A stretch of 64,000 nucleotides of DNA from Candidatus Omnitrophota bacterium (GTDB lineage: Bacteria > Omnitrophota > Gorgyraeia > Zapsychrales > Zapsychraceae): contig JAJDCA010000051.1 in assembly GCA_029261055.1 (NCBI GenBank), forward strand, positions 9,082-73,081, in the 5' to 3' direction. Positions 6,459 to 54,800 of this stretch are shown in pieces (the first letter of the stretch is position 1; each line of letters opens with the position of its first letter). The notes below the pieces were generated by a model that worked only from the letters and a program-made list of their open reading frames with translations, was not told the origin of the DNA and made no database searches. A program made the position numbers and the translations under genes.

Positions 6459-6465
6459 ATTTTTA

Positions 6466-6520
6466 TCGCTCGTCGCACGTAACACGTGACTCGCGTTTTG
6501 CGAGCGACGCGCCACAAGCG
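6466..6520. terminator. Stem-loop between fumC and ald, a putative terminator or processing site
   Basis: TCGCTCGTCGC...GCGAGCGACG inverted repeat with an internal CACGTAACACGTG palindrome, in the 78-nt gap between two co-directional genes. Confidence 0.3.
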
Positions 6521-15392: not shown

Positions 15393-17036
<1,644 letters not shown>

Positions 17037-19264: not shown

Positions 19265-22200
19265 TTAAATACGACTTAATTCTTTGGCTACATCTTCTTC
19301 TGAAACGCCAAGTAGCAAAGGTAGATTATGTACCGGTGTCATCTGAATAATCACCGGTGTCAGGCCGTTAATATTGAAGTTGAGGTTCTCTAATTCACTC
19401 TCACTGCAGTCTGGATTTTCATCAGAAAAACAAGGGACGAGGATATTAGGAAAATCAAAATCAATCTTATCGCCATTTGTTTGAAGATCAAAATTGCCAG
19501 GATTAAAATCAATCCCACCAAGATTGTTATCCTGACCTAACAAACTTTTATCGTGTAACACTTCCTCGACCATCTGCTTTATCTCTTCCATTAACAGACC
19601 TTTTACTTCCTCATCATTAATACCTCCCTGCATTACTTTAAGCTCATATTTTTCTATTAAGTTTTCAGAGAACACCTTTAATAAAAATTTATTTACAATA
19701 TCCACCAGAATTTCTTTATTTGAAAACTTTTTTAGATTAAATACAACAATAGACTTTTTAATCAAAATTTGAAAAATTCCAAATATTCTTTTAAAATTCT
19801 CGACACTAGCTTCATTTTCACCCATATCATCTAAAACACGTTTCATAAAACGAGATCTTTCTTTTTCAAATAAAGACGTAGAAAAAAAATTTTTATCTCC
19901 AATTTTTTGATTTACAATATTTTCCAAGAAATCATAACGTTTACCCATTCTATCTTTCAATAAAGTAAGATCACCTGTCTCATACAAAGCCATCATGAAA
20001 TCTTCACCATATTTATTAATAATCTTTTTTACAACTCGCAACTCATTTCCGTAATGTAATAACGGAGAAATTATTTTGTTTTCTATCTCCTCCTCAGATA
20101 ATTCTCTATCGTACTTCGGACTCAAGAATTCAAATGCTTCCGGATTTTTTCTAAATACCTCCTTCAGTGTTTTTTCCTGTAAATACGTAGCGAATCCTTC
20201 TCCTAAATAATTCCCCAACAAACCTGTTAAACTCAAATAATCCTTACTATGCCATTGTTCATGTATTACTGCAGCAAGAAAATCTAACGGAGTCTCTATT
20301 GATGAAATCAAACTTATTCCTTGTCTTTCTTTCCCTCCTATTATCTCAATAAATTCCCCGATAGAATCGGAATCATGAAATTCAAAAATATCATCCAGCA
20401 ATGACCCCGGCTTAATCATGAATACTAAATTTTCATCAAAATCAGGCATATTTTCTTTTACTATTTTAAATATTTTCTTTTGCTGAGAAGATAATTTTAT
20501 CTTGTTGTATTTTCTAAGAACTTTTACTCGAGATTGAAAACTATTTGCAAAGCTAAATTCTTTCCTTAAAAGCATTGCCTTTTTCACTTTTTTAAAATTT
20601 CCATGTATAATCCTTACTTTCTCCTTTTGATTATTAATTTCATCTCTTGATGTATCTAGTTCTATTAAAATATTCAAAACATTCTTTTCCTTTTGTAATT
20701 TTTCCGGACTCCATTCTTTTATATATCGATCCATATTTCTTATTATTTCTTCTCCAGAAAAATCTTCAAAATCACTATCATTACCTACGCCGATCATCAT
20801 AGCTCTATCCAAACCACTCTCGACAGAATACCCCTTATGCCCTCGCTTTTTGGATTTAAAAGAAACACCCTGAACATCATTCCGAAACCTTTTCGCTAAT
20901 AAAATAGCGGCGAGAAGTTTCATAAAATTACCAAATTCCCCTCTGGACTGATGCCCGATGGTGGAATCATTTGAAAAATTTAGTATCAAGTTTTCCCTGT
21001 TTGAACTTCTTTTGAGTACTTGCATAAAATGAGCTAATTCATGCACCAAAGTATTCGTCAGCGGATGTAAATCACGGCTCTGCGGATTAACAGTCTCAAA
21101 GGATGAAACACTGTCTGTTCTAAAATATATCGTTACCTTTCCTCTCTTCAGCTCAAATCTTCCTGATACAGGAAAATCTTCATTCAATAACTTCACATTC
21201 GTAAATCCAATCAACCCAACGGTATTTTTGACCCATTCAAAGAAGCTAACTTGTTGTTCATTAAAATATTCAGGAGAAATAACATAATCCTCTGCATCAT
21301 ATTTCGCGGCTTCCACAGATTTTTCCGCCTTTTCTTTCCGTTCTTTAAAATAAGGATCGGAAATATAATCTAATTCATTCTCATCAATACCATGCTCTGC
21401 CGCCACCCGAAGTGCTTCCTTTGGATTAACGCTCATTTGTGTCTTAATACGTCTTTTCAACAAACTGTCTCTTTTTCCATTTTCTGTATCAACATCCAAC
21501 TGCACCATAAACAGAATAAAAGATTCCTGCCATTGCTCTTTCTGCTGTCTAACCCCAATTTTCCCATCAAAGGCCTTCCCAATTTTTTTCAAATCAGATA
21601 ACGCTATCACATCAATCTGCCCTTTATTAATGTTCTTAACCACATCAAACAAATGCGTATTTCTTTCTTGATTGATCTTTAAATGAGGACTCTCTTTCTG
21701 TGTTAATCCTTTCCAATACGATGGATTCCTTCCTGTTTCCCACTCCGAATCAAAACGCTTCAGCCGGAATATTTCATCCGTGAGCGCCTTATGCGCCAAT
21801 GCCTTATAAAATTCCACCGCCACATACTTTTGAATCTTCGAAAGATAATCCTTTTCATGCCGAAACGTATCCCGCGTTTCCATAAGCGGCAGAGGAATTT
21901 GAATGATCAACCCTAATTCATCAAAATAACCCCTTAAGAATTCCGGAATAAATTCCAGAAACTCCTCTTTAACCTTGATATCAGAAACCCTTATTCCATC
22001 GCGATCAATAATCTGACTTTTCACATCCGGATCATTAGTCATGTAAATACGAAATTTTCCAAAATTAGTTGTTGCGCCAGTATCCAAAGATTTTGTGATA
22101 AAATCTGTTTCCGCCAAAACCTTTTTCCCCCTCACCTCAAGCGGAACCAACGTTCTTTTTCCATCCTTGTACCGGACAAACGAAATGGTAAATCCCTCTC

Positions 22201-25200
22201 TCTGCGCCATCCCGGCAAACAGCTTCCACGATGATTCAGACAACATTTGATCCAAAGCAGCAATACCATTGCCTTTCTTTTTAATCCGCCGTATCATGAC
22301 CCCATTTTTTAAACCTTGCCGCGCTAACTTACGGACACGTACCAACCTGATCTGCTGCCCGGATGGGTCGACATCAATCGTAAACATATACGCTTCCCCG
22401 TCATTTTTGGCAATAATCTCCAACCGATCTATCCCGGCATACAAAGCAAATTTCCCTTTGCCAAAATAACCGGAGACATCTCCCATCTGCCCCCCTTTTT
22501 CCTTATTCGACTTGGGGATGAGCATGGCTAATATCTTACCGATGGGAGGCCCTTTGCCGTCATCGGTTATTTCTTCAACAAAATCTCCTGTCTCTTCATC
22601 TTCATAATGTTCAACAACAAGATTTACGGCCTTGGCATCGGAGGAATTTTGCGCGGCTTCCGCCGCATGCCGCCCTGCTTCCTGTGCCTTCATAAGATCA
22701 GCAATACTTTGACTAGATTTTTCATTGTCCGGCTGAGCCATAATTTGTTCAATCGCGGCCATCATTTCTTCAATCGTATAAAGATCACTCTCCTCTTCCG
22801 CACTCCTCTTTTTATCTTGGTTCCAGGCTGCAATCTTTTCTACAGGCACACCGCCTTTTGTCATCACAATATCTTCTTCAGCCACGGGGTCTATTTTTCT
22901 CCTAGTATGAACCAAAGGCACATCACTTGTAAAAAACACAATAAACTTTTTGGCCTCTCCTAAATTTAAATCCTGATCCGCGCCTGGATACTTAAATTCC
23001 CTTAAAATATCTATATACTCCACCGATTCAAACGAAGAGGCCCATTGGTCCAAATAATTTTGCCGTACATCTTTGTTTTCATGATTCAAAATTTGTTTCA
23101 GCTGCCGGGTCATGACATCCAGCCCATTTTTGTCTTGAGAAATTCTTGATAAAAATCGAACCATTTTCCGAATAGTGACCACGTCCGTGCTATCTTTCAT
23201 CTCTTTTACCAGTTTATAAATTAAAGGCATAGCCTCAAGATGTTCATCTATTTCAATATTCCACCCAAACAAAAGCGCCTCCATAAATTTAATATCAATA
23301 TTGTTCGCTTGAATATCAACATCCTGATTCGACGCTAAAGAAAACAATTTTTCATAAAATGCTACCCATATCTCATTTAGATCCAGAAGCGAAGACACAC
23401 CATTGACCAGCTTCATAATCTTTTCTTGATCCTTCTTAAGTGCCTTAATAATAAATTCCATCCTTTCAGCAAAAGTATCCAAAGGAAGCCGCTGAAAAAG
23501 ACGATTCCAGTCAGGCGAACCTTCTTGAAAGAGCAAATCAAAGGCCTTGTCATATTTTTCTGTTACAGCTTCGTCCTGCTTCCTGAATAAAGCTCTTATT
23601 TCGCCATTCAAATCATTTCTAAGATCTTCCGGCACAAGATCCAAAAATGGTTTATACGCCTCTTCGGCCTGCTGCACCCACTGCTCCTGTCGACTCAACA
23701 CTTCTTTTTCCCATAAATCCTTAGCTTGATTCATAATGTCCTGTTGTTCCGAAGTGCCCTTACTCAACGGACTTTCCATAAATGCTTTAGGATCAAATAT
23801 CTTTACTTGACCCTCCTCACTGTTGTAAAACACAAAAACAGAACCGGATACGCCGACCAATTCATAATTCAAATAACCCTCCATAACAATTTCAACATGA
23901 TTCCCTTGATCATTAACAATCCTGTAATTACCTTGTGCGTATTGCTCCAAAATAAACGTGCGGTCTTCTGTTATAAAAATAACCCCCTCTCTTCCAGCCA
24001 TTATTGCATCCCCTGTTTTATAAAAGTAATCAACAATTTCTCCTCCTGGTAAAACAGCATACACTACTTTATTATCCCTGGATGATTCCAGACGCATACC
24101 TGTTTTGTGGGTTAATGGAACGTCAAAATTTGAAGCAGATATTATTTCTAAATTTTTATCATAAACCAAAAGCTGATCTTCCAAACGGATAAGCTGAGTA
24201 TCCGACTGGTTTGGCAAATTTTCATAGGATTGAAATTGATCCGGATCAACCGCCTCCATCCCATTCTCCGTGATCCTGGAAATGCCGACAGAATCTTTGC
24301 CATACGTTGTCCAGTATTTGGGTAAATTATATTTCTTTATAATTTCATTTAATTCATGTAGGTTATCAAAGCTTTCAAGCCAACCATTTGAATTATCATG
24401 CTTCTCACCTTTTAGAACAACTCCGAAATAACCATGATTTTCTCCTTTAAATGTTAAAGAAAAAGTTTCCTTTTCATTTGAAGTCATATGAATTTGTTTT
24501 GAATTCGCTACGGAACCATACGGGCTTTGAAAAACAAGCCCTTCGGACTTACTAAGATAAATAAAAATTTCCCCATCCTGATCACTAAAAAAATAGTCTA
24601 TGTTATCAATGCGTCTTTTCTTTTCCAACCTGTACAAATGTTTCCCGGATACATCCTCATACACCACCACATCCGCCTTTGGGTCGATGTAAAAAGACCT
24701 TACATCAGCTGCAATCTGAATTTTAAGGATTTGAATATCTTGATACAAAGGGTCTAAAACAAAAAGATCATTCCTTGAATTCAAAATAATAACGTACCGT
24801 CCTGAGGGGGACAGATTAGCCATCTTTAAATCGTTCAGTATAAAATTATCAGAAGTGTTAAAATAATTTTCCTTCAAGGGTAAAATCATGTACGCACCAG
24901 TTGATTTAGACTTCAAAAGAACCTGCCGCTGATTATACTCAATCAAGAAAAAGCCTTCTGCTGAATTATCCCATGTTCGGGATAGTAACTTCCCTTTACT
25001 ATACGTAGATGCGGCCAATAAAAATTTCCGTGTTATATCCGAGCCGGCCTCCTGCACTTTAAAAATTAAAAACATATTTTCATCCACTTGAAGAATCTCC
25101 GCCCCTTTTTTGATATCTGCAATCCCCTTTCCATTTTCATTTATTAATTGTTGCGTATCCCCATTATTCTTAATAAATATATATCCCTTTTCTAGATTTT

Positions 25201-28200
25201 TCTCTGCAAGAAATTTTTCTGAAGAAATTTTTATCTCAGGGGTTTCGGCCTGACTGGGCATGATGGACAAAAATTCCCTAAATTTCACCTCTTCATTTGC
25301 CCCCTCCGCATTTGTCTTTTTAACAGATGTGTGGGATGGTTGAAATTTAACCGTCTTCTTTTGATTCACAATCTCATACGAGGTATCGATTGTTTCATCG
25401 GCTTTAAGTTTAATCAACTCTGCAAAGAACAAAAAATCAACCTGTTCTTCCTGAGTTAATTCTTCTGTCTGTTGTTTTTCCGCTAAGGCAAAAAACGGTT
25501 CGGCAAACTGCAAAGGAATCGCAATAAAACTATCGGCATCGATGATCGGTAAAGATATCGGATTGTAAAAATCATAAGTGGCTAATGAAAAACTCGTTAA
25601 CGTACCGATCGCTTCTTCGGTAAAGGGCACAGCCACTAAAGGAATATCTTTGTCCTCGCCATTACGCTTACGGGTAAACTTAAAGGTTTGTTTATCCATA
25701 ATACGCGCCCCCATTTTTTTAAGGCTAAACTCCCCGTTCCAGTCAAATAACATAGGGTCTAAATAAACAGCTTTTTGCGCAATTTGGGCATACATCTTTT
25801 GATGCGGCAGAAAAACATACGCCCCCTTTGACTTTATGCCAGCGACCGTTCCGGCGATTTGTTGACGGATGGCCAGTTTAATATCTCGAACAACGGCCTG
25901 ACTCTTCTTATTATCTCCGGCCAGATTATCCAGCCCGGCCGCAATGGTGTTCACATATTTTAACTTTTCTATATCGCTTAACCCCAACTGCTCATTGTTT
26001 AAAATCCCTTCCACCATATGCTCAACGGCCACCTGCATGGGCCACCGGCCGTCATTAGAATAACGTCGTTTTGGAAAATGAATATTGCTCCGGGACGGGG
26101 CAATATCCACAAATCCGTTAAACTCAAGCATCAAAGTCTCCTGGACAAGAGCCTCGGGATTAATATCATCATTATTCATATCTTTCTCAAGGGGGATCGT
26201 TCGCAATACCTCTTCATTTCGCACAAAGGCAACCTTCGCTTTGTTTTCACGGGCATCAGAAATAACCATAACATGTTTAAGAGCCGCTTTAATATCAGAT
26301 TCCTTGACAACTTTAGCTGTTTTATCTCCTTCTCCAGGCACAAACATACGTGATAACTTCACACCATTCATTCCTTTCCCATTATCAATAATTTTAATGG
26401 TGTTCTTTGAGACCAATAATTTAATATCCTTACCTTTTCTGTCCTCTTCCGTAGGGAGAGGTTCCCCTTCAGGAACAAGAATTGTGCGATATTCCCATCC
26501 ATTAACCCGTTTTTCTTCACCCCCTTTTTGTGTGACAATACGCTGCTTCTTGTTATAAGCAAATCTTTCGCGTGCATTATCAATTAATTCACTTTGTGTA
26601 ATTTTGCTTTCTTCATATTCATCCATCTCTTCCGGGATATTACGGCCGGTTTGAATTTCAACAATGGTGCCGTGTTCTAATTCTTGCCCCTCAGCCGCCT
26701 CCCAAAATTGCTCGTGGGTTATTACTTTAATTTGAATGTACACCTGGCCGACGGAGTCTTTGAGCATAGTCAACTGATAAGCCGTATCACCCCCCTCGGC
26801 CAAGGTATACACATCAATACGTCCTTTTATTCCCGTCTCAAGCCAATCCGCGATTTGTTTAATTCCGCGCCCGAATTTTCCAATATCCCCACCCCAAGCA
26901 TCTATACTATTGGCGATAGCTTCCATAATGCCCTGCCCTTTTGGATCCCCGCTCTGAGAATCAACCTCATCCGTAAGGTTTGGTTTGGTATAATGCCCAT
27001 TCAGAATCCAGCCGATACTCTCTTCGGTATATCCATCTTTTACTAATTGCTGCACAATGGCATCATAATAAAATTCTTTTAAGCTCAAGTTAAAATCTTT
27101 TTCTTCTTTTAAAATACCCAAATTACTCAGCAACGATTTTAATTCCAATTCATCCAGCTGATCATCAGCCAGACGCCTTTGAGCCGCGGCAAAATGCTCC
27201 CAATCTATCCCTTTAAAATTTTCTTCCGGTAAGGCATATTCTGTTGCCTGAATTCGATTTTTTATTTTATCCAGTTTTTCCTGATCACCCTGACGGGTAA
27301 TCATGGCGGCATCGGAAAACTTTTCCGGTGGTAAGACTGATACTTTGGCGGATTCATAATCCTTTTGCCCGGTATTTTTAACTTGAGCTTGTATGTTAAC
27401 AAACATAGCCCCATCATCATAAATTCCCTGGATAACATGGAATGGCATCTTCTGTGCCACCAGTAAAATATCTTCCACTTCCTCTCCCATATCCATCCCG
27501 CCAGAAAAATACTTCCGTGGAACAATTGTTTCTGTAACAAAATCATAATCTTCTTTGATGTAGTCATAAACACCTACTTTAAAGGCCTCGAGGTATTGAT
27601 CATAAATTTTCTGTTTGGCCTGTTTGTCTTCAATGTCCACGCCGTCAACTTTGTTCTGGCCGATGTATATTGAGGACAAGGCATGCCTTGTCCCTACAGA
27701 ATTTTTCAATTTTCGTTTGAACCATGTGGCGAGGATCAAGGAATGATAAATCTGGCGGAGCTGGGCGAAATTGGCGCCCTCGTTGACTTCGCGTTCAATT
27801 TCGGGAATGAGGATTTCGCGGATGATGGATGTCGTAGGGGCAACCCTTGTGGTTGCCCTTTCTTTTTTGGCGGGTACAAAGCCCGCCCCTACGTTATGCC
27901 CCATCGCAACATAATCCGCCTCCAACATCACCTTCAACCGCGACTCCACCACAAACGCTGTATTGGTTTCCACATTCTCATACACCACAGCCTCAGACGG
28001 CACAATCCACACCTTGTTAAAGGTATCCACCGGAACATCCATGACGCCATATTCTTCATACGCCCGCTCATGCACCCGATCCCAAAACTCTGCCCCCAAC
28101 TCATCCCCCGGATACATCAATGAGGCAGTAATTTGTTTGAGCAAATAATCTTGGGCCAAAAGATCTCGGCCCATTTCCGTTACTCCAAACTTCTCAGGAA

Positions 28201-28582
28201 TAATACGGTCACTTTCGTACGGACTAAGGTTCACCCACAAATCCTTTTCCGGCACCGTCAGTGAGGCTAAAAAATATTTAATAAGCTTCGAACTCTCCAC
28301 TCTTAAATCTTCACCCTCAGCCTGCCCCTCCCCAGTGTCCACAATAAAATCAAACCGAAACGGTTCCTCCGGAAAAACCTTCAATCCCTTAATCAACACC
28401 GGTGCATACGGCTTACTCAACGATACCATTGCCCCCACTGCAGGAAGATTAACTACTGTTTGCGACTGTGCATTAGCAACTTGTGTCGGATGAATCACAC
28501 TCATCGTAAAAACCGTGATTACCGTAACAGCCACAAAACGAAAAAATAAAGAAAATCGTGTGTTTGTAAAATTAATATTCAT
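19265..28582 (-). CDS. Giant secreted multidomain protein (3105 aa): conserved N-terminal module, two GHKL-like ATPase motif sets, two HExxH zincin-like motifs, putative beta-propeller region
   Basis: Uninterrupted 9.3-kb ORF with a signal peptide (cleavage site ..VANA|QS). N-terminal roughly 370 aa are about 60% identical to the N-terminus of the 51381..54800 protein. Bergerat-fold motifs: EAIANSIDA ... IIDNGKGM, and QNSSDAKA ... ITDDGKGP ... GYFGKGKF. HExxH motifs: LVHELAHFMQ and VIHEQWHS. Confidence 0.8.
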   Translation of the reverse strand: MNINFTNTRFSLFFRFVAVTVITVFTMSVIHPTQVANAQSQTVVNLPAVGAMVSLSKPYAPVLIKGLKVFPEEPFRFDFIVDTGEGQAEGEDLRVESSKLIKYFLASLTVPEKDLWVNLSPYESDRIIPEKFGVTEMGRDLLAQDYLLKQITASLMYPGDELGAEFWDRVHERAYEEYGVMDVPVDTFNKVWIVPSEAVVYENVETNTAFVVESRLKVMLEADYVAMGHNVGAGFVPAKKERATTRVAPTTSIIREILIPEIEREVNEGANFAQLRQIYHSLILATWFKRKLKNSVGTRHALSSIYIGQNKVDGVDIEDKQAKQKIYDQYLEAFKVGVYDYIKEDYDFVTETIVPRKYFSGGMDMGEEVEDILLVAQKMPFHVIQGIYDDGAMFVNIQAQVKNTGQKDYESAKVSVLPPEKFSDAAMITRQGDQEKLDKIKNRIQATEYALPEENFKGIDWEHFAAAQRRLADDQLDELELKSLLSNLGILKEEKDFNLSLKEFYYDAIVQQLVKDGYTEESIGWILNGHYTKPNLTDEVDSQSGDPKGQGIMEAIANSIDAWGGDIGKFGRGIKQIADWLETGIKGRIDVYTLAEGGDTAYQLTMLKDSVGQVYIQIKVITHEQFWEAAEGQELEHGTIVEIQTGRNIPEEMDEYEESKITQSELIDNARERFAYNKKQRIVTQKGGEEKRVNGWEYRTILVPEGEPLPTEEDRKGKDIKLLVSKNTIKIIDNGKGMNGVKLSRMFVPGEGDKTAKVVKESDIKAALKHVMVISDARENKAKVAFVRNEEVLRTIPLEKDMNNDDINPEALVQETLMLEFNGFVDIAPSRSNIHFPKRRYSNDGRWPMQVAVEHMVEGILNNEQLGLSDIEKLKYVNTIAAGLDNLAGDNKKSQAVVRDIKLAIRQQIAGTVAGIKSKGAYVFLPHQKMYAQIAQKAVYLDPMLFDWNGEFSLKKMGARIMDKQTFKFTRKRNGEDKDIPLVAVPFTEEAIGTLTSFSLATYDFYNPISLPIIDADSFIAIPLQFAEPFFALAEKQQTEELTQEEQVDFLFFAELIKLKADETIDTSYEIVNQKKTVKFQPSHTSVKKTNAEGANEEVKFREFLSIMPSQAETPEIKISSEKFLAEKNLEKGYIFIKNNGDTQQLINENGKGIADIKKGAEILQVDENMFLIFKVQEAGSDITRKFLLAASTYSKGKLLSRTWDNSAEGFFLIEYNQRQVLLKSKSTGAYMILPLKENYFNTSDNFILNDLKMANLSPSGRYVIILNSRNDLFVLDPLYQDIQILKIQIAADVRSFYIDPKADVVVYEDVSGKHLYRLEKKRRIDNIDYFFSDQDGEIFIYLSKSEGLVFQSPYGSVANSKQIHMTSNEKETFSLTFKGENHGYFGVVLKGEKHDNSNGWLESFDNLHELNEIIKKYNLPKYWTTYGKDSVGISRITENGMEAVDPDQFQSYENLPNQSDTQLIRLEDQLLVYDKNLEIISASNFDVPLTHKTGMRLESSRDNKVVYAVLPGGEIVDYFYKTGDAIMAGREGVIFITEDRTFILEQYAQGNYRIVNDQGNHVEIVMEGYLNYELVGVSGSVFVFYNSEEGQVKIFDPKAFMESPLSKGTSEQQDIMNQAKDLWEKEVLSRQEQWVQQAEEAYKPFLDLVPEDLRNDLNGEIRALFRKQDEAVTEKYDKAFDLLFQEGSPDWNRLFQRLPLDTFAERMEFIIKALKKDQEKIMKLVNGVSSLLDLNEIWVAFYEKLFSLASNQDVDIQANNIDIKFMEALLFGWNIEIDEHLEAMPLIYKLVKEMKDSTDVVTIRKMVRFLSRISQDKNGLDVMTRQLKQILNHENKDVRQNYLDQWASSFESVEYIDILREFKYPGADQDLNLGEAKKFIVFFTSDVPLVHTRRKIDPVAEEDIVMTKGGVPVEKIAAWNQDKKRSAEEESDLYTIEEMMAAIEQIMAQPDNEKSSQSIADLMKAQEAGRHAAEAAQNSSDAKAVNLVVEHYEDEETGDFVEEITDDGKGPPIGKILAMLIPKSNKEKGGQMGDVSGYFGKGKFALYAGIDRLEIIAKNDGEAYMFTIDVDPSGQQIRLVRVRKLARQGLKNGVMIRRIKKKGNGIAALDQMLSESSWKLFAGMAQREGFTISFVRYKDGKRTLVPLEVRGKKVLAETDFITKSLDTGATTNFGKFRIYMTNDPDVKSQIIDRDGIRVSDIKVKEEFLEFIPEFLRGYFDELGLIIQIPLPLMETRDTFRHEKDYLSKIQKYVAVEFYKALAHKALTDEIFRLKRFDSEWETGRNPSYWKGLTQKESPHLKINQERNTHLFDVVKNINKGQIDVIALSDLKKIGKAFDGKIGVRQQKEQWQESFILFMVQLDVDTENGKRDSLLKRRIKTQMSVNPKEALRVAAEHGIDENELDYISDPYFKERKEKAEKSVEAAKYDAEDYVISPEYFNEQQVSFFEWVKNTVGLIGFTNVKLLNEDFPVSGRFELKRGKVTIYFRTDSVSSFETVNPQSRDLHPLTNTLVHELAHFMQVLKRSSNRENLILNFSNDSTIGHQSRGEFGNFMKLLAAILLAKRFRNDVQGVSFKSKKRGHKGYSVESGLDRAMMIGVGNDSDFEDFSGEEIIRNMDRYIKEWSPEKLQKEKNVLNILIELDTSRDEINNQKEKVRIIHGNFKKVKKAMLLRKEFSFANSFQSRVKVLRKYNKIKLSSQQKKIFKIVKENMPDFDENLVFMIKPGSLLDDIFEFHDSDSIGEFIEIIGGKERQGISLISSIETPLDFLAAVIHEQWHSKDYLSLTGLLGNYLGEGFATYLQEKTLKEVFRKNPEAFEFLSPKYDRELSEEEIENKIISPLLHYGNELRVVKKIINKYGEDFMMALYETGDLTLLKDRMGKRYDFLENIVNQKIGDKNFFSTSLFEKERSRFMKRVLDDMGENEASVENFKRIFGIFQILIKKSIVVFNLKKFSNKEILVDIVNKFLLKVFSENLIEKYELKVMQGGINDEEVKGLLMEEIKQMVEEVLHDKSLLGQDNNLGGIDFNPGNFDLQTNGDKIDFDFPNILVPCFSDENPDCSESELENLNFNINGLTPVIIQMTPVHNLPLLLGVSEEDVAKELSRI

Positions 28583-39355: not shown

Positions 39356-39384
39356 GAACACTGACGACTGATCACTGATCCCTA

Positions 39385-44560: not shown

Positions 44561-47169
44561 ATGGCCGGATTCTGTTGTAATGAAGGTTCCGTCGTCACAA
44601 ATTGAGTTGTGTCATTGGCTATATTGTAAACATAAATATCTCCATTTCCATTTCGGAAATCTTTCCAAACAACATAATTCTTGGCGACAACAGGTCTAAG
44701 CCCTTTTTGACCATTGGATAAAATGGTCTTTTCAACACCCGTTGTAATGTCGTAAAGAATAATACTAGATGTCTCATTAAGCGTCCTTTCCCACACAATC
44801 CAATCACCGGAAATATCCGCATTCCAATCCACCAGGCTGTTCTGTGTAATTCGCTTTTCTCCACCCGTTGAAATAGCATACATATAAATATCCGAATTTC
44901 CGTTTCGAGAATCTTCCCAAACGATTTTATCGCCCGATATAGCCGGTCTTAATTGATTTACCAAAGAATTCGTAATTTTCTTCTCTATACCAATTGTGAC
45001 ATCATAAAGGTAAATATCCCAATTGCTATCACGCAGATCTTGCCAAACAATTTTATTACCTGAAATATCTGGTTTAGTTTGAACGGCTGAATTGCTTGTA
45101 ATTTGCTGTTCCACACCCGTGGTTATATCATACAGAAAAATATCTGCATCCACGTTGCGCCAATCTTCCCAAACAATCAAATCACCTGAAATAGAAACAT
45201 TAACTTGTTCTTTAAGATCTGTTGTAATTTGCTTTTCCTGGCCTGTAGAAAAATCATAAAGAAAAACATTCGCATTAAAATTTCTAAAATCAATCCACGC
45301 AACTCTTTGCCCCGAAATCACGGGAAACTCTTGAGTAAAAATATTTGTTGTAATTTGCTGAACACCCGGGTTGCGTATCCAGGTCTTTACTTCAACAATA
45401 TCTTCAAACTCTCTCGCAGTTGAATCTGTGGCAACCAGCCGCAGTAAAAATTGCCCCACACCTACTTCATTTAAACCCCACGCACCTAAAGAACCATCAT
45501 CTATGGGAGTGGTCACCACCGGCCCAATTGGAAACCAATTCCCCAACTTATTTAAATTTCTATAAGATAATTGATAGTGTTGAAATGCATCTCCTGTGGC
45601 TGCCCCATCGATAAGTATTGAACTATTTTCATTTGATATTTCTATTTGAACCCCAGAATTAGGATAATTAATTTTAGCTTTAAGCACAGAGTTAATATTA
45701 AGAGCTTGTTCCGCATTAATGCGGCCATAACCGGAATTAAAATCAAAACCCGGACTATCAATGTCATCCGCTGAAACACGAAGAACCTGGCTAATATCAT
45801 CATTTGTAAAAGTTGGTTGATGTGCTGCAATCAAGGCTGCAAGTCCGGTAACATGAGGTGCTGCCATTGATGTTCCGGATTTAAATCCATACTTATCTGC
45901 CAGGGTTGTTGACAAAACGCTTCTTCCAGGAGCTGCTACGATGACCGATCCTCCAAAATTTGAAAAACTGGCTTTATTATCATTTGAATCTGAAGCCGCT
46001 ACCGTTATGGTTTCACTCATATTTTGAGGACTCTTTAAAGATACGTCTACCGCCTCATTTCCAGCTGAAAAAACGACCACCACACCTGAATTATATGCAG
46101 CCTTTACAGCAGCTTCCGCCACAGGGTTGCTGGGGCATATTTCTTTGCATCCCCAGCTATTATTAATTACCTCTGCTCCATTCTTTACGGCATAAAAAAT
46201 ACCCTCAGCTAAATCGGAAGTGAACCCTGTTCCTGCATCAGAAAACCCCTTAACCGGCATAATCGTAGCCTGTGGCGCGACACCAATCACACCTATACCA
46301 TTATTACCAACAGCGGCAATTGTTCCTGCGACATGACTCCCATGAGAATGCTTATCCATAGGATCGTTATCATCATTTCCAAAATCCCATCCGTGAACAT
46401 CATCGATATGCCCATTCTCATCATCATCAATACCATTCGTTTCTTTGTCATTATCATCGCTGTCTATTCCCGTCTCACCTGTATTCGTCCAAATATTTGC
46501 AGCTAAATCTTCGTGCAAATAATTTACCCCTGTATCCACTACAGCGACAAAGACACCCTGCCCCTGATTAACATCCCAAGCCATTTCGGTCTGAATCTTT
46601 TCCAATCCCCATAAATTCCTGTCAAGAAACCTTGGATCATTAGGAAGAAAGGCTGGCGTCATCAGATAATCCGGCTGAGCATATTCGACATGCGGATCGC
46701 TTTGATAATGCTGACAAATTTTTTCAATATCACTCTCTTCAGGTACTTCAAAAACATACACGTTAGATAAATCCGGCAGGGCAGGGCCATCGACAGCGCC
46801 TAACAAATGGGGTTGAATCTTAAAATTTGCTTTTTGTAACTGACTTTCTATTTTGTTTTTAGCCTGGCTGGTTGACAGCTTGTCCCGTTTGACAAATAAA
46901 CTTCGTGCATTCTTTACTTTATAATGTTGATTAAGATTATCGATAGAAGTACTGTGATCGTTGAAAGCATTTTGAAATTTTTGGCGGTTACTTAAAAGAC
47001 AATGGGCACAGGTTCGCAAAGCCTCCCTTCCATCACTTTTAAATTTTACAATAAAGCGACCTTTAGCAAAATTTGTGTCAGGCTTTTTTGATATTGCTTG
47101 CTGTGCGTTTAATGTCGTAATAAACAATAATCCCAAAGCAATCCCCAACACGGTAAATACTTTTTTCAT
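42277..47169 (-). CDS. Secreted giant subtilisin-like serine protease (S8) with I9 propeptide, Ca-binding Asp-rich insert, 7 TolB/PD40-like beta-propeller repeats and a triplicated C-terminal module
   Basis: Signal peptide; catalytic triad motifs VAVVDTGV / HGSHVAGT / GTSMAAPHV; seven DIYLYD..TG..KIT repeats; C-terminal Ig-like plus roughly 200-aa unknown domain in tandem copies. Confidence 0.85.
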   Translation of the reverse strand: MKKVFTVLGIALGLLFITTLNAQQAISKKPDTNFAKGRFIVKFKSDGREALRTCAHCLLSNRQKFQNAFNDHSTSIDNLNQHYKVKNARSLFVKRDKLSTSQAKNKIESQLQKANFKIQPHLLGAVDGPALPDLSNVYVFEVPEESDIEKICQHYQSDPHVEYAQPDYLMTPAFLPNDPRFLDRNLWGLEKIQTEMAWDVNQGQGVFVAVVDTGVNYLHEDLAANIWTNTGETGIDSDDNDKETNGIDDDENGHIDDVHGWDFGNDDNDPMDKHSHGSHVAGTIAAVGNNGIGVIGVAPQATIMPVKGFSDAGTGFTSDLAEGIFYAVKNGAEVINNSWGCKEICPSNPVAEAAVKAAYNSGVVVVFSAGNEAVDVSLKSPQNMSETITVAASDSNDNKASFSNFGGSVIVAAPGRSVLSTTLADKYGFKSGTSMAAPHVTGLAALIAAHQPTFTNDDISQVLRVSADDIDSPGFDFNSGYGRINAEQALNINSVLKAKINYPNSGVQIEISNENSSILIDGAATGDAFQHYQLSYRNLNKLGNWFPIGPVVTTPIDDGSLGAWGLNEVGVGQFLLRLVATDSTAREFEDIVEVKTWIRNPGVQQITTNIFTQEFPVISGQRVAWIDFRNFNANVFLYDFSTGQEKQITTDLKEQVNVSISGDLIVWEDWRNVDADIFLYDITTGVEQQITSNSAVQTKPDISGNKIVWQDLRDSNWDIYLYDVTIGIEKKITNSLVNQLRPAISGDKIVWEDSRNGNSDIYMYAISTGGEKRITQNSLVDWNADISGDWIVWERTLNETSSIILYDITTGVEKTILSNGQKGLRPVVAKNYVVWKDFRNGNGDIYVYNIANDTTQFVTTEPSLQQNPAIDTRRIVWEDFRNGNADIFVYELPNNSPVVNPIENKSVDEGQTLSFIVTATDVDGEPLTYTALSLPDGASFNSATQIFSWTPGFDQSGVYDGVRFEVSDGKDIDFKEITITVNDVVGNPQLFFDDFSTDTTGSYTVTDTWTSGGTGRFVYDGAGQRSQVLTGDNIGLRIGQSIPATDTGTFKVDFEPVKKYPAGGGLMINLRQDADHYYRISNTDGYGPRSVEKVVGRRVVERVFFASEYIQGAKYSIVVNFNPTTMTVRAFGDQVTLSGNGSAINVSAFEITTSQQDAYYDNIEVRSDIQPNNPPVLNTIGNKVVDEGETLSFTVTATDDDGEPLTYAALSLPDGASFNSATQIFSWTPNFDQSGVYDGVRFEVSDGVDMVFEEITITVNDVVGNPQLFFDDFSTDTTGAYTVTDTWTAGGTGRFVYDSTGQRAKVVTGDNIGLKIGQSIPATDTGTFKMDFEPVKKYPAGGGLMISLNQDAGNYYRISNTDGYGPRSVEKVVGRRVVERVFFASEYIQGTKYSIVVNFSPTTMTVRAFGDQVTLSGNGSAINVSAFEITTSQQDAYYDNIEVRSDVQPPPASLFFDDFSTDTIGAYTVTDTWTAGGTGRFVYDSVGQRAKVVTGDNIGLKIGQNISATDTGAFKVDFEPVKKHPLGGIITINLKQDANNYYRIRNTDGYGTKAVEKIVGGRVVESVFFASEFVQGNIYSIVVDFSPTTFIVTAFGDQVTLSRNSSAINVSTFEIEARQQDVYLDNIEVK

Positions 47170-50590: not shown

Positions 50591-50917
50591 CTAAGCGTGA
50601 ACTTTAATTTTTCGAGGAATAAGTTGATAGCCCATAGCATGCATAATGGCATTAATACTTTCGAATCTTGGGTTTCCTTTTACTGAAAGTGCTTTTTGTA
50701 AACCATTACGAGTTAAATCTGTCTTTTTTGCAATAAGGCTTATGCCTTTTGCACGAATAACTCTACGTAGTGAAGAAAGCAATGCCCCTATATCACCATC
50801 TTTGGCGTACTCATCAAAAATGATAGTAATATATTCATCAATTTCTTCAGGGTGCTTGACGAAATATTCTTCTTCAATTTCTCCGAAAGTTCTGTATTGT
50901 CTTTTTTTCTTAATCAT
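50591..50917 (-). CDS. Addiction-module antidote protein (HigA-like, COG3636/TIGR02684 family)
   Basis: Sits downstream of the COG3657 killer gene with the classic ATGATTAA 8-nt overlap; HTH-containing C-terminal half. The start was moved to the MIKKK ATG at 50917. Confidence 0.65.
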   Translation of the reverse strand: MIKKKRQYRTFGEIEEEYFVKHPEEIDEYITIIFDEYAKDGDIGALLSSLRRVIRAKGISLIAKKTDLTRNGLQKALSVKGNPRFESINAIMHAMGYQLIPRKIKVHA

Positions 50918-51248
50918 TTTCTTTACAATCCTTCCAATATAATTTTGCTTTTTTAATATCACTCTTTTGGCTACCCTTATCTCCTCCGCATAATAAAATT
51001 ACGACATTTTCCGAATCTTCACCATAATAAACTCTATAACCAGGACCAAAAAATATCCTCAACTCACTTACGCCATTCCCAACAGTGGAATGGTCACCAA
51101 AATTCCCCTGCTCTACCCGTGCGATGCGAGCCAATATTCTCTTTCGCCCTACAGCATTCCGTAATCTGTTTACCCAAGTTGTAAAAGGCTCATATCCTTT
51201 TTCATCAGCATAAATAACTACATTTTTACATCTCAAATTCTTTACCAC
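50910..51248 (-). CDS. Addiction-module killer protein (RelE/ParE-superfamily, COG3657/TIGR02683 family)
   Basis: FTTWVNRLRN...RILARIARVEQGNFGDHSTVGNGVSELRIFFGPGYRVYY matches the COG3657 consensus. GTG start. Confidence 0.65.
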   Translation of the reverse strand: MVKNLRCKNVVIYADEKGYEPFTTWVNRLRNAVGRKRILARIARVEQGNFGDHSTVGNGVSELRIFFGPGYRVYYGEDSENVVILLCGGDKGSQKSDIKKAKLYWKDCKEND

Positions 51249-51380: not shown

Positions 51381-54300
51381 CTAATTCAAACGCGACACAT
51401 TATACTCTTCATTTTCTTCATTACGAGGTACAAGGCCTAAGAGGGGTAAAATACTATTAATCGGCGTAAAATCCATAAACACCGGTGAAAACACAACACC
51501 ATCCTCGAGCAAGGGCTCCAACTGCGCAGGGTCAAATTGAATGTCCACCCCGCTACCCCCTCGATTGAGGTCGATTTCGTTCATGTCGATACCACCGACC
51601 ATTGAATCATCGACATCATCTTTATCTTCTTTGAAAATATGATTACTTAGCCAACTTTCCCTACCCTTCAAAACAGCATCAGCAAATTCCCGAGAAAATT
51701 CTGCAGGTTTTTTTGACTGGGTAATCGCGGCATTTACCAAAACAGCATTAAACCCCATTTCCATAGCTTCTTGCGCATGTTCAGGGGAACTTATGCCTGC
51801 CTCAGCAATTAATTGAATATCAGGTCGAATCCCTCTAGACCAAATCATAATATTTTTTATTAATTTTTTACCCTCTTCTGTTCCCAATCCACCACCTGAG
51901 CCTGGTTGTGTGCCTTCGATACGCAACCCAACGACTTGTTTTAATTCTAGTATTTCGTTTAACATTTTTTTAGACATTGTTTTTCCAATTAAGGGGAAAA
52001 TCTTAATATCCTTATTAAGATTAACCAACACTTTAACAGCATCAATGATGTCATTATTTTTTGTCATTAGATTGTCATCTCTAATTTCAAGTTTAAGGTA
52101 AGGCGTTTGTACTAATTGGACTCCTAGCGCTGCCATTATTATAGCTTCCTCTTGGTTTTGAACTCTACTAGTGTTAACCATCGTGATAAATTCTTTTGTT
52201 TCACCTAACCGCAACAATTCTTTATGCGTTGATTCTATATAAGGAACCCGCACATCTTCTGGCAATGTATTTAAACTCCCTGATTTACCTAACTTAGAAA
52301 ACCCTGCATTACTTTTAAATTTAGTATCTTGTAATATTTTTTTTGCCTCTTTAAAAGATGTTGTTTTTTTTAATTCTCTGACATCTCCTGGAAGAAAAAT
52401 AAATACTTGGGACCCAGATTCTAAAACAATATCGCGCGAAACGTTTGGAGAAAGTGTAGCAATACAAGTAGCATCAGAACAATTGTCATTACGCATATGC
52501 GTTATTGCCGTTGGAGAAATTAAAGGAAATAACTCCACCCCATTAATAACAAACCGAGTATAATTTTGAACTTCGACTACCTCTACATCAATAGTTTCCG
52601 CTGATTCAAGCTCAATTTCTCTCATGAGCCACTCTCTAATTTGGCCTTTATAATACTTAACTCCGTTATAATCACTAAAATTCCTCAAACCTCCCCAAAA
52701 ACCTCCAAACTTTAACCCGATAAATGTTTCACTTACAGATGCTTCTAACTTTACTACTTTAGAGAAAGCCTTAGCTATTTCTGTTGCAACATTTAGATAA
52801 TGCTTAAGAAGCTCTTTTTTCTTTTCCTTACTTACTCCCCCAAAAGGCAACATTTTCAAGGATATTGCCACGCCACCGTATAAATGAGATGTCCTATCTA
52901 ATTCATATACCATGTCTCGCATTATCGTTTCACGCAAAGACATCTCAGGCGCATTTTCCTCTTCCTTCTTTCTGACCATCGCCTTATCAAAATACTTTCC
53001 TAAATCATCCCAATCTATTTCTTCAGTATTGTTTATAATTAAATCTTTTCCTAATTGCGGAATCTCAGAATTTAATTTTTCATATGTTTTTGAAGAAAAT
53101 GTTGATCCTTCAACCATGAGGACCACTTTTCTATTTTGCTCAGCACGTTTACGCAGTCTTTCTTGCCTTGTCTCCTCATTGACATGAAATAATACTTCCA
53201 CGTCTGGTTCAATATTATTATTTAAATAAGCCGATGTCTCTACGCCTACGAAAAAAGCAATCTTTCTATCCCACATTTCTGTCTTCACAATTTTATTAAA
53301 AGGAGCATCCCGATCATTCAAAAATATTTCGTAACCCTCTCCAGCAACCGAGTTATCAGTAAGAGAATAGATAATATCTTTTTTAAAAAATCTTTTTAAC
53401 AATATATCTTCTACAAATGTCTTAATAAAAGTTTTCTTACCTGTACCGCTTAAACCTGCAATTCTAATAAATAACGCTCTTTTTTCATTATGCGAAGCTA
53501 ATTTTTTATCAATTATGTCCAAAAGCTCTTTGCTTCCCTCAAATACATTTTTGGATTTAACATACCCTTTTTTAATCTTTTCTTCAAAAGTCATCGTCGA
53601 AGCATCCACCTCATCTTTCTTCGGTGTTACACTCATCGCAAAGTCAAAGGTAGCGCCTACAATTGAATTTTCAATTTGTGTTGGATTAAAAGCTGGGGTG
53701 AATCGCATGGCAGCATCTTTGAATCCCCCTGAGAAATACTTCCTCGGGATGACTTCCTGGCTTAATGTATCGTACTCTTCCTTAATATAATCAAACACCC
53801 CTGTCTTAAACGCTTGCATGTATCGATCATAAATTTGATTGTTAACCGTCTTGTCTTCAATCGCAACACCAGCGACTTTGTTTTGGTCAACGTAGACTTG
53901 GAAAAGGATACTTCCTTTGATGGTTTCTTTGTACCATTTGGCGAGGATCAGGGAATGGTACATCTGTCGTAGTGATGCGAAATTTTGGCCTTCGTTGACT
54001 TCGCGTTCGATTTCGGGAAGGATGATTTCGCGAATGATTTCGGTGGAATCCCCTCGCAACTGATCTTCACCGAAGGTTGCTCGGGGCTCGGCGTTGGAAT
54101 TATTATTGTTCAACGCCTCGTAATCTTCCTCCAACATCACTTTCAGCCGACTGTTAACGATGTACACCGTATTCTCATGCTCATACACCGTTGCACTCTC
54201 CGGCATGATCCAAACTTTGTTAAAGGTGTTCACTGGGATTTCTGTCACCCCATATTCTTTCTCGGCTCGTTCATAGACCCTCGCCCAAAATTTTTCCCCC

Positions 54301-54800
54301 AACTCTTCCTCCGGATACATCAAACTCGCTGTGAGTTGTTTCAACAAATAATCTTGCGCTAATAAATCACGCCCCAAGGCGGTCTTGCCTAATTCTTCGG
54401 GAATAATTCGGTCTGGCTCATATGGCGATAAATTCACCCACAAATCATCCTTCGGCGTGGTCATGGCGGCTAGAAAATATCGGACAAGCTTTTCTGATTC
54501 TTTTTCAATTTCTTCCTGAGATTTATCCGAATGCCCACTATCAACAATAAAATTAAATCGAAACGGTTCATTTGGATGGATGGTCATGCCTTTAAGAAGT
54601 ACCGGAACAAACGCAGGACTGGGCGGCACCATAGCTCCTGGAACAGGCAGATTCAACAAACTTATACCTGCCTGTCCGGCAGGCAGGCTCTGAGAAAAGC
54701 TTGGTGGCAGAATCGTACAAAACGCAAAATATACAGACAAAATGCAAGAAAATACCGAATAACCAAAGCTTTTACGCTTTTTTTGATAATACGTCCACAT
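51381..54800 (-). CDS. Large signal-anchored multidomain protein (1139 aa): conserved N-terminal module (paralog of the 3105-aa protein N-terminus) + P-loop kinase-like domain + ThiG (thiazole synthase)-like TIM barrel
   Basis: N-terminal KKRK followed by a hydrophobic anchor. About 370 aa collinear with 27480..28500. Walker A AGLSGTGKKT, APS-kinase/uridine-kinase-like. The C-terminal roughly 300 aa align with ThiG through blocks SGSQ, NTS..EEAI, YLKLEI (catalytic Lys), GSGGGLG and GFNAVLVNAAI. Confidence 0.8.
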   Translation of the reverse strand: MWTYYQKKRKSFGYSVFSCILSVYFAFCTILPPSFSQSLPAGQAGISLLNLPVPGAMVPPSPAFVPVLLKGMTIHPNEPFRFNFIVDSGHSDKSQEEIEKESEKLVRYFLAAMTTPKDDLWVNLSPYEPDRIIPEELGKTALGRDLLAQDYLLKQLTASLMYPEEELGEKFWARVYERAEKEYGVTEIPVNTFNKVWIMPESATVYEHENTVYIVNSRLKVMLEEDYEALNNNNSNAEPRATFGEDQLRGDSTEIIREIILPEIEREVNEGQNFASLRQMYHSLILAKWYKETIKGSILFQVYVDQNKVAGVAIEDKTVNNQIYDRYMQAFKTGVFDYIKEEYDTLSQEVIPRKYFSGGFKDAAMRFTPAFNPTQIENSIVGATFDFAMSVTPKKDEVDASTMTFEEKIKKGYVKSKNVFEGSKELLDIIDKKLASHNEKRALFIRIAGLSGTGKKTFIKTFVEDILLKRFFKKDIIYSLTDNSVAGEGYEIFLNDRDAPFNKIVKTEMWDRKIAFFVGVETSAYLNNNIEPDVEVLFHVNEETRQERLRKRAEQNRKVVLMVEGSTFSSKTYEKLNSEIPQLGKDLIINNTEEIDWDDLGKYFDKAMVRKKEEENAPEMSLRETIMRDMVYELDRTSHLYGGVAISLKMLPFGGVSKEKKKELLKHYLNVATEIAKAFSKVVKLEASVSETFIGLKFGGFWGGLRNFSDYNGVKYYKGQIREWLMREIELESAETIDVEVVEVQNYTRFVINGVELFPLISPTAITHMRNDNCSDATCIATLSPNVSRDIVLESGSQVFIFLPGDVRELKKTTSFKEAKKILQDTKFKSNAGFSKLGKSGSLNTLPEDVRVPYIESTHKELLRLGETKEFITMVNTSRVQNQEEAIIMAALGVQLVQTPYLKLEIRDDNLMTKNNDIIDAVKVLVNLNKDIKIFPLIGKTMSKKMLNEILELKQVVGLRIEGTQPGSGGGLGTEEGKKLIKNIMIWSRGIRPDIQLIAEAGISSPEHAQEAMEMGFNAVLVNAAITQSKKPAEFSREFADAVLKGRESWLSNHIFKEDKDDVDDSMVGGIDMNEIDLNRGGSGVDIQFDPAQLEPLLEDGVVFSPVFMDFTPINSILPLLGLVPRNEENEEYNVSRLN

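Follow-up and report, generated by a model that had tools for sequence, protein, structure and literature searches.

The minus-strand gene at positions 51381 to 54800 of a 64,000-nucleotide stretch of DNA from a Candidatus Omnitrophota bacterium (contig JAJDCA010000051.1 of assembly GCA_029261055.1; the whole stretch is hereafter called the window) encodes a protein of 1139 amino acids (aa). This query protein represents a subclass, not delineated before and marked by caps and punctuation, of the modular, predicted exported proteins of Omnitrophota, and it carries a new subfamily of the ThiG fold. Behind its signal sequence, two conserved caps, an N-terminal module (N-module) and a C-terminal module (C-module), enclose a variable middle, which in the query consists of a P-loop domain, a helical domain (mid2), and a ThiG/BexX-like (beta/alpha)8 barrel, punctuated by short delimiters (Table 1). 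The family is restricted to Omnitrophota-type genomes, and each member comprises the same four elements, namely, signal, N-module, variable middle, and C-module. In the reading that we favor, with a probability of roughly 0.7, the query is an exported capped modular protein, the barrel of which would perform lysine-imine chemistry outside of canonical thiazole synthesis. An earlier note on this DNA had seen a real and unusual protein but took the family-wide design for a singular fusion of a P-loop kinase with ThiG; the "large N-terminal module" of that note and the last approximately 70 aa of the protein are the caps.

The capped family is large. Of 8000 candidates scored against the whole protein, 3852 matched significantly, and at least 3,800 protein clusters share the caps, at 50%–64% identity. 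Among the 120 matches listed (hereafter, the 120 homologs), the only full-length match is the identical NCBI entry, the others covering no more than the N-terminal 28% to 42% of the query, at 48% to 64% identity. The enzyme domains found downstream include aldose epimerase, dCMP deaminase, nucleoside diphosphate kinase (NDK), adenylate kinase, phosphoglycerate kinase, phosphoglucose isomerase, Maf, and LpxC; other middles contain NUDIX, radical SAM, methyltransferase, REC, HEAT, ankyrin, or TPR domains. Database names of the members follow the cargo domain. All named source organisms of the listed matches are Omnitrophota or Omnitrophica, except for 2 metagenome-assembled genome (MAG) entries that bear the label Candidatus Bathyarchaeia. 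Among GTDB species representatives, at least 541 loci were confirmed; the best 80 of these all stem from MAGs of Omnitrophota or of "uncultured Planctomycetales," as many as 5 of the 80 belonging to one genome, and the best N-module match to the query has 68% identity. The members seen are between 640 and at least 3105 aa long. The C-module is present in at least 86 of the 120 homologs, and in open reading frames (ORFs) with both ends visible, the two caps always occur together. At 3 loci (L045, L048, and L064), a same-strand upstream ORF ends in a C-module right before the next N-module gene, so that members are sometimes arranged in tandem, head to tail. The window itself holds a second member, of 3105 aa (Table 1), in which DAAMI (aa 424) and DRAMM (aa 2592) are the only clear delimiters and a single Pfam match (HATPase_c_3) falls within about 2,600 aa of cargo, leaving very long unannotated blocks. 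No searchable paper contains the signature strings GGIDLN, GGIDMN, KYFSGG, WVNLSP, or LLAQDY, and neither caps nor delimiters are mentioned in the available passages of three Omnitrophota papers, including Seymour et al. 2023; both appear to be undescribed before.

The N-module spans about 365 aa and has 45 invariant alignment columns. Its invariant polar residues (N123, S125, E128, D150, K154, Q155, K195, E267, N269, R278, Q279, and K291) are compatible with a binding or catalytic site. In a model of aa 1–402 based on a 62-sequence alignment (predicted template-modelling [TM] score 0.74), the mixed alpha/beta core is well predicted; no significant match to the module was found in viral predicted structures, PDB sequences (profile search), Pfam, NCBIfam, PHROGs, or PADLOC. 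The C-module, of about 70 aa, follows the consensus VGGIDxNEI.V.R.G.GV.IQFDP.......GIDGF.PVIIN.TP..S.LPLLGLEP..EE..[VL]S.LN, and aa 1069–1139 of the query match the C-termini of the family with E values of 1e-19 to 2e-24. Thus, the barrel does lie toward the C-terminal end, as the earlier note had it, but not at the extreme C-terminus, since the 71-aa C-module comes after aa ~1063.

The query has a single hydrophobic segment (aa 12–35), preceded by a basic n-region, in agreement with the N-terminal signal seen in the earlier note and, by prediction, with an extracytoplasmic context. Across the family, 98 of the 120 homologs carry an N-terminal hydrophobic segment, with a mean n-region charge of +2.6, and in 81 of these 98 the hydrophobic core is followed by a small-x-[AGS]/Q site (the slash marking the putative cut). 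Alignment positions 36 and 37 are Ala and Gln in at least 90% of members and Ser36 and Gln37 in the query, the signal of which is probably cleaved before Gln37. No further strongly hydrophobic segment is present in 52 of the 70 complete members. From the single N-terminal signal and the lack of any other hydrophobic segment, we infer that the dominant design of the family is a soluble protein exported through Sec. In several members (P0003, P0033, P0043, P0071, P0074, and others), the cargo itself contains strongly hydrophobic segments, which in some cases directly follow the N-module, and the N- and C-caps may not always reside on the same side of the membrane.

In the 120 homologs, two types of delimiters punctuate the cargo. 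D-x-[AS]-M-[LVMIT] occurs 141 times, against 6.5 +/- 2.3 expected from shuffling, and S-S-P-[VIL] occurs 117 times, against 4.0 +/- 2.2, each type being enriched about 25-fold; more broadly, the D type can be written as D-x-[AS]-[MVQ]-[LVMIT], with S-S-P-[VIL] as the alternative. The types are nearly mutually exclusive, with 54 proteins containing DxAM only, 38 SSP only, and 6 both. Mapped against Pfam domains, delimiters are located at domain edges and never inside: DKAMV at 655 follows an NDK domain at 528–652, SSPL at 564 follows another NDK domain at 429–552, an aldose epimerase domain at 444–733 lies between delimiters at 396 and 742, and one REC domain of P0020 begins 9 aa after D-x-[AS]-ML, the other delimiters recurring every ~132 aa.

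The type of delimiter is uniform within a genome. Among genomes with at least 3 visible delimiters, DxAM dominates in 9 and SSP in 8, and none is mixed; counts of the two types in single genomes are, for example, 17:1, 8:0, 0:6, and 0:4. A D-x-A-V-L variant (DRAVL) is used in two genomes. Consistent with this pattern, the query (DKAMV and DDSMV) and its 3105-aa paralog in the window share the delimiter type. Among the genome loci L004–L083, DATDQB01 and JAFGFL01 likewise differ from each other, each being uniform within. The delimiter type did not follow N-module clades at coarse resolution but tracked the genome instead, which suggests that the delimiters either co-evolve with a factor encoded in the genome or are linkers that evolve in concert. 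We also considered that the delimiter Met might be a relic start codon or a site of internal initiation. However, no Shine–Dalgarno-like sequence precedes the query's four Met codons, Val replaces Met in some genomes, and SSP[VIL] contains no Met. The Val variant and the lack of Shine–Dalgarno-like sequences argue against relic starts and internal initiation alike and favor a protein-level signal, recognized by a factor that the genome encodes, or, alternatively, concerted linker evolution. Two secreted-type proteases are encoded in the window on the minus strand, a 1630-aa S8 subtilase with a fervidolysin-like prodomain and He_PIG Ig domains (42277–47169) and an 884-aa double M16 (insulinase-type) peptidase (36721–39375); they are candidates, and nothing more, for processing proteins of the capped family. 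No conserved neighboring protease or transporter gene was found among the 80 best loci, the largest clusters of neighbors being antisense shadows of the N-module.

The barrel is a confidently predicted ThiG fold. PF05690 (ThiG) matches aa 857–1058 with 83.1 bits (cutoff 23; E = 2.6e-23) over profile positions 49–239 of 247, the late start being due to an insertion of ~45 aa after beta-2; in an alignment with 35 ThiG-family proteins (A2), homology spans from beta-1 ("FPLISPTAITH" vs "SRLllGTGKY") through beta-8. The closest PDB sequences are Thermus ThiG (2htm, E = 6.9e-12) and BexX (4n6e, E = 6.5e-7). An AlphaFold2 model of aa 621–1139 has a predicted local distance difference test score above 90 over aa ~785–1055, where strands and helices alternate. 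The best Foldseek match to the modelled barrel is BexX (4n6e_A, E = 3.2e-15, target-normalised TM score 0.81), the canonical ThiGs 2htm, 5z9y, 1tyg, and 1wv2 give target-normalised TM scores of 0.80–0.85, and the next family, PdxS, drops to ~0.5. The earlier note, which had proposed structure prediction and superposition on ThiG as a check, was therefore right in seeing a genuine ThiG fold here, and the domain is complete. The strings that it had quoted were all located: KKRK with the hydrophobic stretch (aa 7–33), AGLSGTGKKT (aa 447–457), SGSQ (aa 795), NTS..EEAI (aa 876–886), YLKLEI (aa 901–906), GSGGGLG (aa 967–973), and GFNAVLVNAAI (aa 1016–1026).

The active site of the barrel is conserved in part. 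In the alignment with 1tyg, 2htm, and 5z9y, K903 and E905 fall on the K-[LV]-E motif, that is, on K96 and E98 of Bacillus subtilis ThiG, so that the Schiff-base Lys which the earlier note had placed inside YLKLEI is indeed retained. Neither the Lys nor the Glu varies in alignments A2 and A3; in alignment A4, Glu is invariant and Lys is found in at least 90% of sequences. By contrast, the beta-7 Asp of ThiG (B. subtilis D182, "DAGIG") is replaced by Glu1000 ("IAEAGIS") in the query and by Glu in all subfamily members, as in BexX; of the three active-site residues whose conservation the earlier note wanted checked, Lys and Glu are thus kept but Asp is not. The Gly-rich phosphate-binding loops on beta-6, beta-7, and beta-8 are kept. 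Identity to ordinary ThiGs amounts to 20%–30% in the full-length alignment A2 and at most 38% in local matches, and none of the NCBIfam ThiG models is matched by the 1139-aa protein at E<=1. As judged from the alignments and the model, the barrel conforms to ThiG in fold and in the Lys/Glu pair; it departs from ThiG at Asp182, in genomic context (see below), and in the NCBIfam models, and we accordingly name it ThiG/BexX-like rather than thiazole synthase.

BexX provides the closest functional parallel. According to PMC4784017, which summarises Sasaki et al. 2014, this ThiG homologue is the 2-thioglucose-6-phosphate synthase of the BE-7585A pathway and converts glucose-6-phosphate into a 2-thiosugar using hijacked sulfur carriers. 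The query barrel and BexX share features that set them apart from canonical ThiG, namely, the beta-7 motif E-x-G-I-[GS] ("vvEGGIGS" in BexX and "iaEAGISS" in the query) and the beta-6 motif LR[IV] ("aLRV" and "gLRI," respectively; structures 4n6e/4n6f). BexX is therefore a precedent for Lys-imine chemistry on a sugar phosphate by a ThiG fold outside of thiamin synthesis. It differs, however, in being a cytosolic stand-alone enzyme of an actinomycete natural-product cluster that depends on sulfur carriers, and it is only ~20% identical to the query; no natural-product-cluster or sulfur-carrier genes are found near the query, among window ORFs of at least 120 aa, or near its relatives. Compared with ThiG itself (PF05690; 1tyg, 2htm, 5z9y, and 1wv2), with which it shares the whole-barrel fold, the K-L-E motif, and the Gly-rich loops, the query barrel has the beta-7 Glu, "APTA-ITH" instead of "GTGKY" at beta-1, and the ~45-aa insertion, and resides in a 1139-aa predicted exported protein with no thiS, thiF, or thiO found nearby.

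The subfamily to which the barrel belongs is rare. A word-indexed search with the non-cap middle (aa 405–1065) returned only the protein itself, and relatives were found by an exhaustive HMMER scan of 1.84 billion representatives (150 matches listed), among which 5 have 40%–57% identity to the barrel and a sixth, P0126, 38%. A profile search of 5.8 billion sequences yielded 4 subfamily members besides the query. The 5 closest relatives (alignment A3) keep K-x-E, the Gly-rich phosphate loops, and the beta-7 Glu, and carry LR[IV] on beta-6 in place of the canonical MPL. In the subfamily, the Lys, the Glu, the beta-7 acidic residue, and the Gly-rich loops are invariant despite overall identities of 38%–53%. 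Three of the 5 closest relatives (P0122, from a Candidatus Omnitrophota; P0123; and P0124) are stand-alone proteins, each with its own N-terminal signal-like sequence, which is not present in P0125 and P0126; a signal-bearing, predicted exported ThiG-fold enzyme is unexpected by itself. The remaining one, P0121, is encoded directly 3' of a frameshifted N-module, with a C-module at the end and with neither P-loop domain nor mid2. This locus (L084, positions 1–1934; ENA ERZ27248668, contig k141_902368), from an unrelated metagenome, carries N-module, ThiG-like domain, and C-module in 3 frames, lacks the final third of the N-module, and is either a pseudogene or an indel-bearing assembly. It is the sole other capped gene found with a ThiG-like cargo. 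The architecture that the earlier note suggested seeking in related genomes is thus widespread as regards the caps, was found again as N-module, ThiG-like domain, and C-module only at L084, and was not found again with the P-loop and mid2 units.

ThiG-like domains also occur in other fusions, such as the 792-aa P0129, which corrects the earlier note's picture of ThiG as a small stand-alone enzyme. P0127 (1977 aa, with 10 matched stretches) was not counted as a relative, its match being probably spurious and driven by repeats. As to the surroundings of the stand-alone relatives, P0122 (L001, 10001–11128) has a possible lipobox-like "VYSC," P0123 is located at L085 4184–5290, and P0124 (L002, 2340–4052) has a 190-aa C-terminal extension and adjoins a TetR regulator and a resistance-nodulation-division (RND) efflux operon. 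The genome of P0122 (GCA_042571405.1; L001 2716–4755) further encodes a thiamin pyrophosphate (TPP)-binding subunit of 2-oxoacid:ferredoxin oxidoreductase with Hint/intein-splicing domains, which is 679 aa long vs ~300 aa for its homolog in the window (29881–30777).

The thiamin context of the barrel is sparse. As the earlier note had stated, thiC is present in the window (15393–17015; PF01964, E = 4e-192), 36 kb from the query gene, and thiS, thiF, thiE, and thiO were not found; no other thi gene was detected among window ORFs of at least 120 aa, a thiS-sized ORF of ~66 aa not having been specifically searched. Near P0121–P0124, no thiS, thiF, other thi, or sulfur-carrier genes were found either. 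With the imine Lys kept and the thiamin context gone, the ThiG fold has apparently been repurposed. Of the two options that the earlier note had left, such a repurposing appears the better one on the present comparisons; the other, a fused thiazole-pathway enzyme, is poorly supported in view of the low identity, the lack of an NCBIfam match, the beta-7 Glu, and the signal-bearing relatives without thi neighbors. Moreover, since the caps are shared by a family with almost any cytosolic-type middle, ThiG is one cargo among thousands rather than part of a dedicated pathway fusion.

The two other units of the query middle are less well defined. The Walker A motif of the P-loop region resembles that of nucleoside monophosphate (NMP) kinases (GxxGxGK[GK]T), whereas all domain matches are sub-threshold (AAA_18, E = 0.085; Thymidylate_kin, E = 0.1; dTMP kinase, E = 0.025; PHROG thymidylate kinase, E~0.007). 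No PDB sequence matches the region at E<=10, and no homolog was found among 270 proteins compared or among the 150 listed matches of the exhaustive scan. The Walker A motif recognized in the earlier note stands, the support for a kinase assignment is weak, and aa 405–604 may, with due caution, be described as an orphan NMP/thymidylate-kinase-like P-loop domain. The mid2 domain is 67% identical to the fragment P0128, where it directly precedes DTAML and the C-module, indicating that mid2 is an independent cargo unit.

The capped family invites comparison with several known systems. In MARTX toxins, constant N- and C-terminal regions surround strain-variable effectors, which are freed by cleavage at short inter-domain sites. 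The likeness to the capped family is one of logic only, that is, an analogy without homology, with caps around a variable cargo and short inter-domain motifs; no RTX repeats or cysteine protease domain (Pfam and NCBIfam searches of the query) and no organisation of the type I secretion kind were detected, and the query has a Sec signal. Polymorphic toxins and systems of the contact-dependent inhibition type combine a conserved trafficking part, a demarcating motif such as VENN, and many paralogs per genome. The capped family, too, has a conserved part, a short marking motif, and many paralogs per genome, but its variable part is internal, its cargos are of housekeeping type rather than toxins, and there are no adjacent immunity genes. 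A further comparison is with the giant proteins of Omnitrophota, including Archaeovorins, for which two preprints (West-Roberts et al. 2023, bioRxiv 10.1101/2023.11.21.568195; Nielsen & Lui 2026, bioRxiv 10.64898/2026.06.07.730766) describe lengths of 10,000–147,000 aa, many transmembrane helices, and C39/S8 peptidase or SecA-like domains. For these giants, post-translational cleavage is suspected, and the absence of known cleavage points is said to block structural and functional dissection. The giants and the query family belong to the same phylum and place cytosolic-type enzyme, REC, HEAT, TPR, NUDIX, and radical SAM domains behind a signal peptide or transmembrane segment. As far as these descriptions go, the query family is set apart by being mostly signal-peptide-only and by its defining caps and delimiters. 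The query, with 1139 aa, a single hydrophobic segment, and no C39, S8, or SecA Pfam domains, does not belong to the giant/Archaeovorin class in its present definition.

Taken together, the favored reading can be outlined as follows. The N-terminal signal would direct export through Sec; the two caps would supply a shared trafficking, anchoring, or delivery function; and the delimiters would be recognized by a factor encoded in the genome, as sites of processing or as linkers. By analogy with ThiG and BexX, which act on 1-deoxy-D-xylulose 5-phosphate and glucose-6-phosphate, respectively, Lys903 would form an imine with a ketose phosphate. The substrate of the barrel would lie outside of thiamin synthesis, and the reaction would take place in the periplasm, on the cell surface, or inside a host cell; the barrel would not be the thiazole synthase of the cell. 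Several points weigh against this reading. Radical SAM, REC, ATP-dependent kinase, and ThiG-like cargos need cytosolic cofactors and fit poorly outside of the cytoplasm. The arguments for export and cleavage are simple ones, drawn from hydrophobicity, charge, and motifs, and 18 of the 70 complete members have 1–2 extra hydrophobic segments, so that topology is not uniform across the family. In addition, the N-module has no function assignment, the structure model of the C-module is of low confidence, and the delimiters could be simple linkers.

The cofactor contradiction could be escaped if the enzymes acted inside a host or prey cell or a compartment, which is the basis of a bolder, MARTX-like version of the model that we put forward tentatively, with the odds clearly against it. 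In this version, the family members would be multi-effector polyproteins exported through Sec; the caps would deliver the variable middle, by docking or translocation, to the surface or the interior of a host or prey cell or into an internal compartment; a protease encoded in the genome, co-evolved with its own delimiter (D-x-A-[MV]-L or S-S-P-[VIL]), would cut the cargo free; and the ThiG/BexX-like barrel and other cytosolic-type enzymes would then act on host metabolites. The main rival resolves the contradiction in the opposite way, by keeping the protein in the cytoplasm as a membrane-tethered multi-enzyme, with the N-terminal helix as an uncleaved anchor or with inverted topology, and with the caps serving assembly or scaffolding. 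Its strongest argument is that the cargos of the family are overwhelmingly of cytosolic types that need ATP, S-adenosylmethionine, reducing conditions, or phosphodonors; furthermore, the hydrophobic core of ~20 residues is more anchor-like than that of a typical signal peptide, and the literature on giant Omnitrophota proteins faces the same puzzle and calls transmembrane predictions unreliable. We nevertheless consider a tethered enzyme unlikely, because the basic n-region (mean charge of +2.6) places the C-terminal bulk outside by the positive-inside rule, the conserved small-x-small/Q site is typical of signal peptidase I, and the closest stand-alone relatives of the barrel independently bear signal sequences.

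Other alternatives concern the barrel or the gene itself. That the barrel is the bona fide ThiG of the cell, feeding thiamin synthesis together with thiC and with ThiS/ThiF encoded elsewhere, would accord with the above-threshold PF05690 match, the conserved equivalents of B. subtilis K96 and E98, the retained phosphate-binding loops, and thiC 36 kb away. We regard this as quite improbable, given that no NCBIfam ThiG model is matched, that the catalytic Asp182 is changed to Glu as in the non-thiamin enzyme BexX, that a 45-aa insertion is present and the beta-1 "GTGKY" motif replaced, that the subfamily is extremely rare and signal-peptide bearing, that no thiS, thiF, thiE, thiO, or thiH lies near the query (window ORFs of at least 120 aa) or its relatives, and that the family context marks the barrel as interchangeable cargo. 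Conversely, a non-catalytic barrel with a ligand-binding or structural role, like the HEAT, ankyrin, and TPR cargos, could explain why the domain diverges from canonical ThiG, carries the D182E change, and has a large insertion, and purely structural repeats do occur in many family members; yet, the Lys, the Glu, the beta-7 acid, and the Gly-rich loops remain invariant at 38%–53% overall identity, a pattern expected under selection for catalysis, which makes this explanation very improbable. Finally, the unusual domain combination and the identical NCBI entry as sole full-length homolog might raise the suspicion of a chimeric assembly or a run-together ORF joining unrelated genes. The ORF, however, is open throughout its 3.4 kb with continuous base composition, starts and ends with the family-defining caps, and shares its layout with thousands of independent assemblies, and an independent gene with N-module, ThiG-like domain, and C-module was found; such an artefact is accordingly almost inconceivable.

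Table 1. Coordinates of the query gene, its units, and the second capped gene in the window
Feature	Residues (aa)	Window positions (nt)	Strand	Description
Whole ORF	1–1139	51381..54800	-	1139 aa + stop: signal peptide, N-module, P-loop domain, helical domain, ThiG/BexX-like barrel, C-module
Signal sequence	1–36	54693..54800	-	KKRK n-region, hydrophobic core, SFS/QS; putative cleavage at the slash, from the motif
N-module (N-cap)	37–404	53589..54692	-	Mixed alpha/beta; ends ...IPRKYFSGG, then ~45-aa tail to DASTM
P-loop region	405–604	52989..53588	-	Walker A GLSGTGKKT at aa 449–457 (nt 53430–53456); Arg-rich lid-like stretch at aa 539–558
Delimiter 1, DKAMV	605–609	52974..52988	-	Separates P-loop domain from helical domain
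Helical domain mid2	610–749	52554..52973	-	Cargo unit of its own; helices predicted with low confidence
ThiG/BexX-like (beta/alpha)8 barrel	750–1063	51612..52553	-	~45-aa insertion after beta-2
Barrel residue K903	903	52092–52094		B. subtilis K96
Barrel residue E905	905	52086–52088		B. subtilis E98
Barrel residue E1000	1000	51801–51803		B. subtilis D182
Delimiter 2, DDSMV	1064–1068	51597..51611	-	Directly precedes C-module
C-module (C-cap)	1069–1139	51384..51596	-	GGIDMNEIDLNR..DIQFDP..F.PV...FTPINSILPLLGL..acidic tail..VSRLN
Second family member		19265..28582	-	3105 aa; signal sequence, N-module with 52% identity, C-module GGIDFN...LPLLLG

The minus strand carries nearly all real genes of the window (positions 1–64000), and all 2-kb bins have a negative GC skew (cumulative -6.1), which amounts to a strong strand bias that runs without interruption from end to end. 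Immediately 3' of the query gene, overlapping minus-strand ORFs (50591–51248) encode a HigB/Gp49-like toxin (112 aa) and an HI1420-type antidote (123 aa). A RhuM-family "virulence" protein (40229–41242, minus strand; PF13310, E = 1.6e-105) is encoded between two ORFs without Pfam match, the GC content dipping locally to 0.33 at 40–42 kb around its gene; this region is possibly a small mobile or foreign insert. At the beginning of the window, two AlaDh/PNT-family paralogs (1905–3041 on the plus strand and 5358–6515 on the minus strand), of which one is probably PntA and the other alanine dehydrogenase, flank a PntB gene (3345–4715), and a PilZ-domain ORF is present at 4866–5246.

Omnitrophota are widespread, almost all uncultured, and suspected to be episymbionts or predators. 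For the biology of ThiG, our results add a rare, signal-bearing clade that resembles BexX and keeps the imine Lys, which on its own would be a curiosity. The capped family represents a smaller, more tractable version of the puzzle posed by the giant proteins of this phylum. If the MARTX-like model were true, the delimiters would be the cleavage points that have been reported missing for those giants. Genome-specific delimiters at domain boundaries turn the question of processing into a direct proteomics test and give a rule for the in silico division of such proteins into units. The caps and delimiters offer a concrete, testable handle on the construction, and perhaps the processing, of multi-domain and giant proteins in Omnitrophota.

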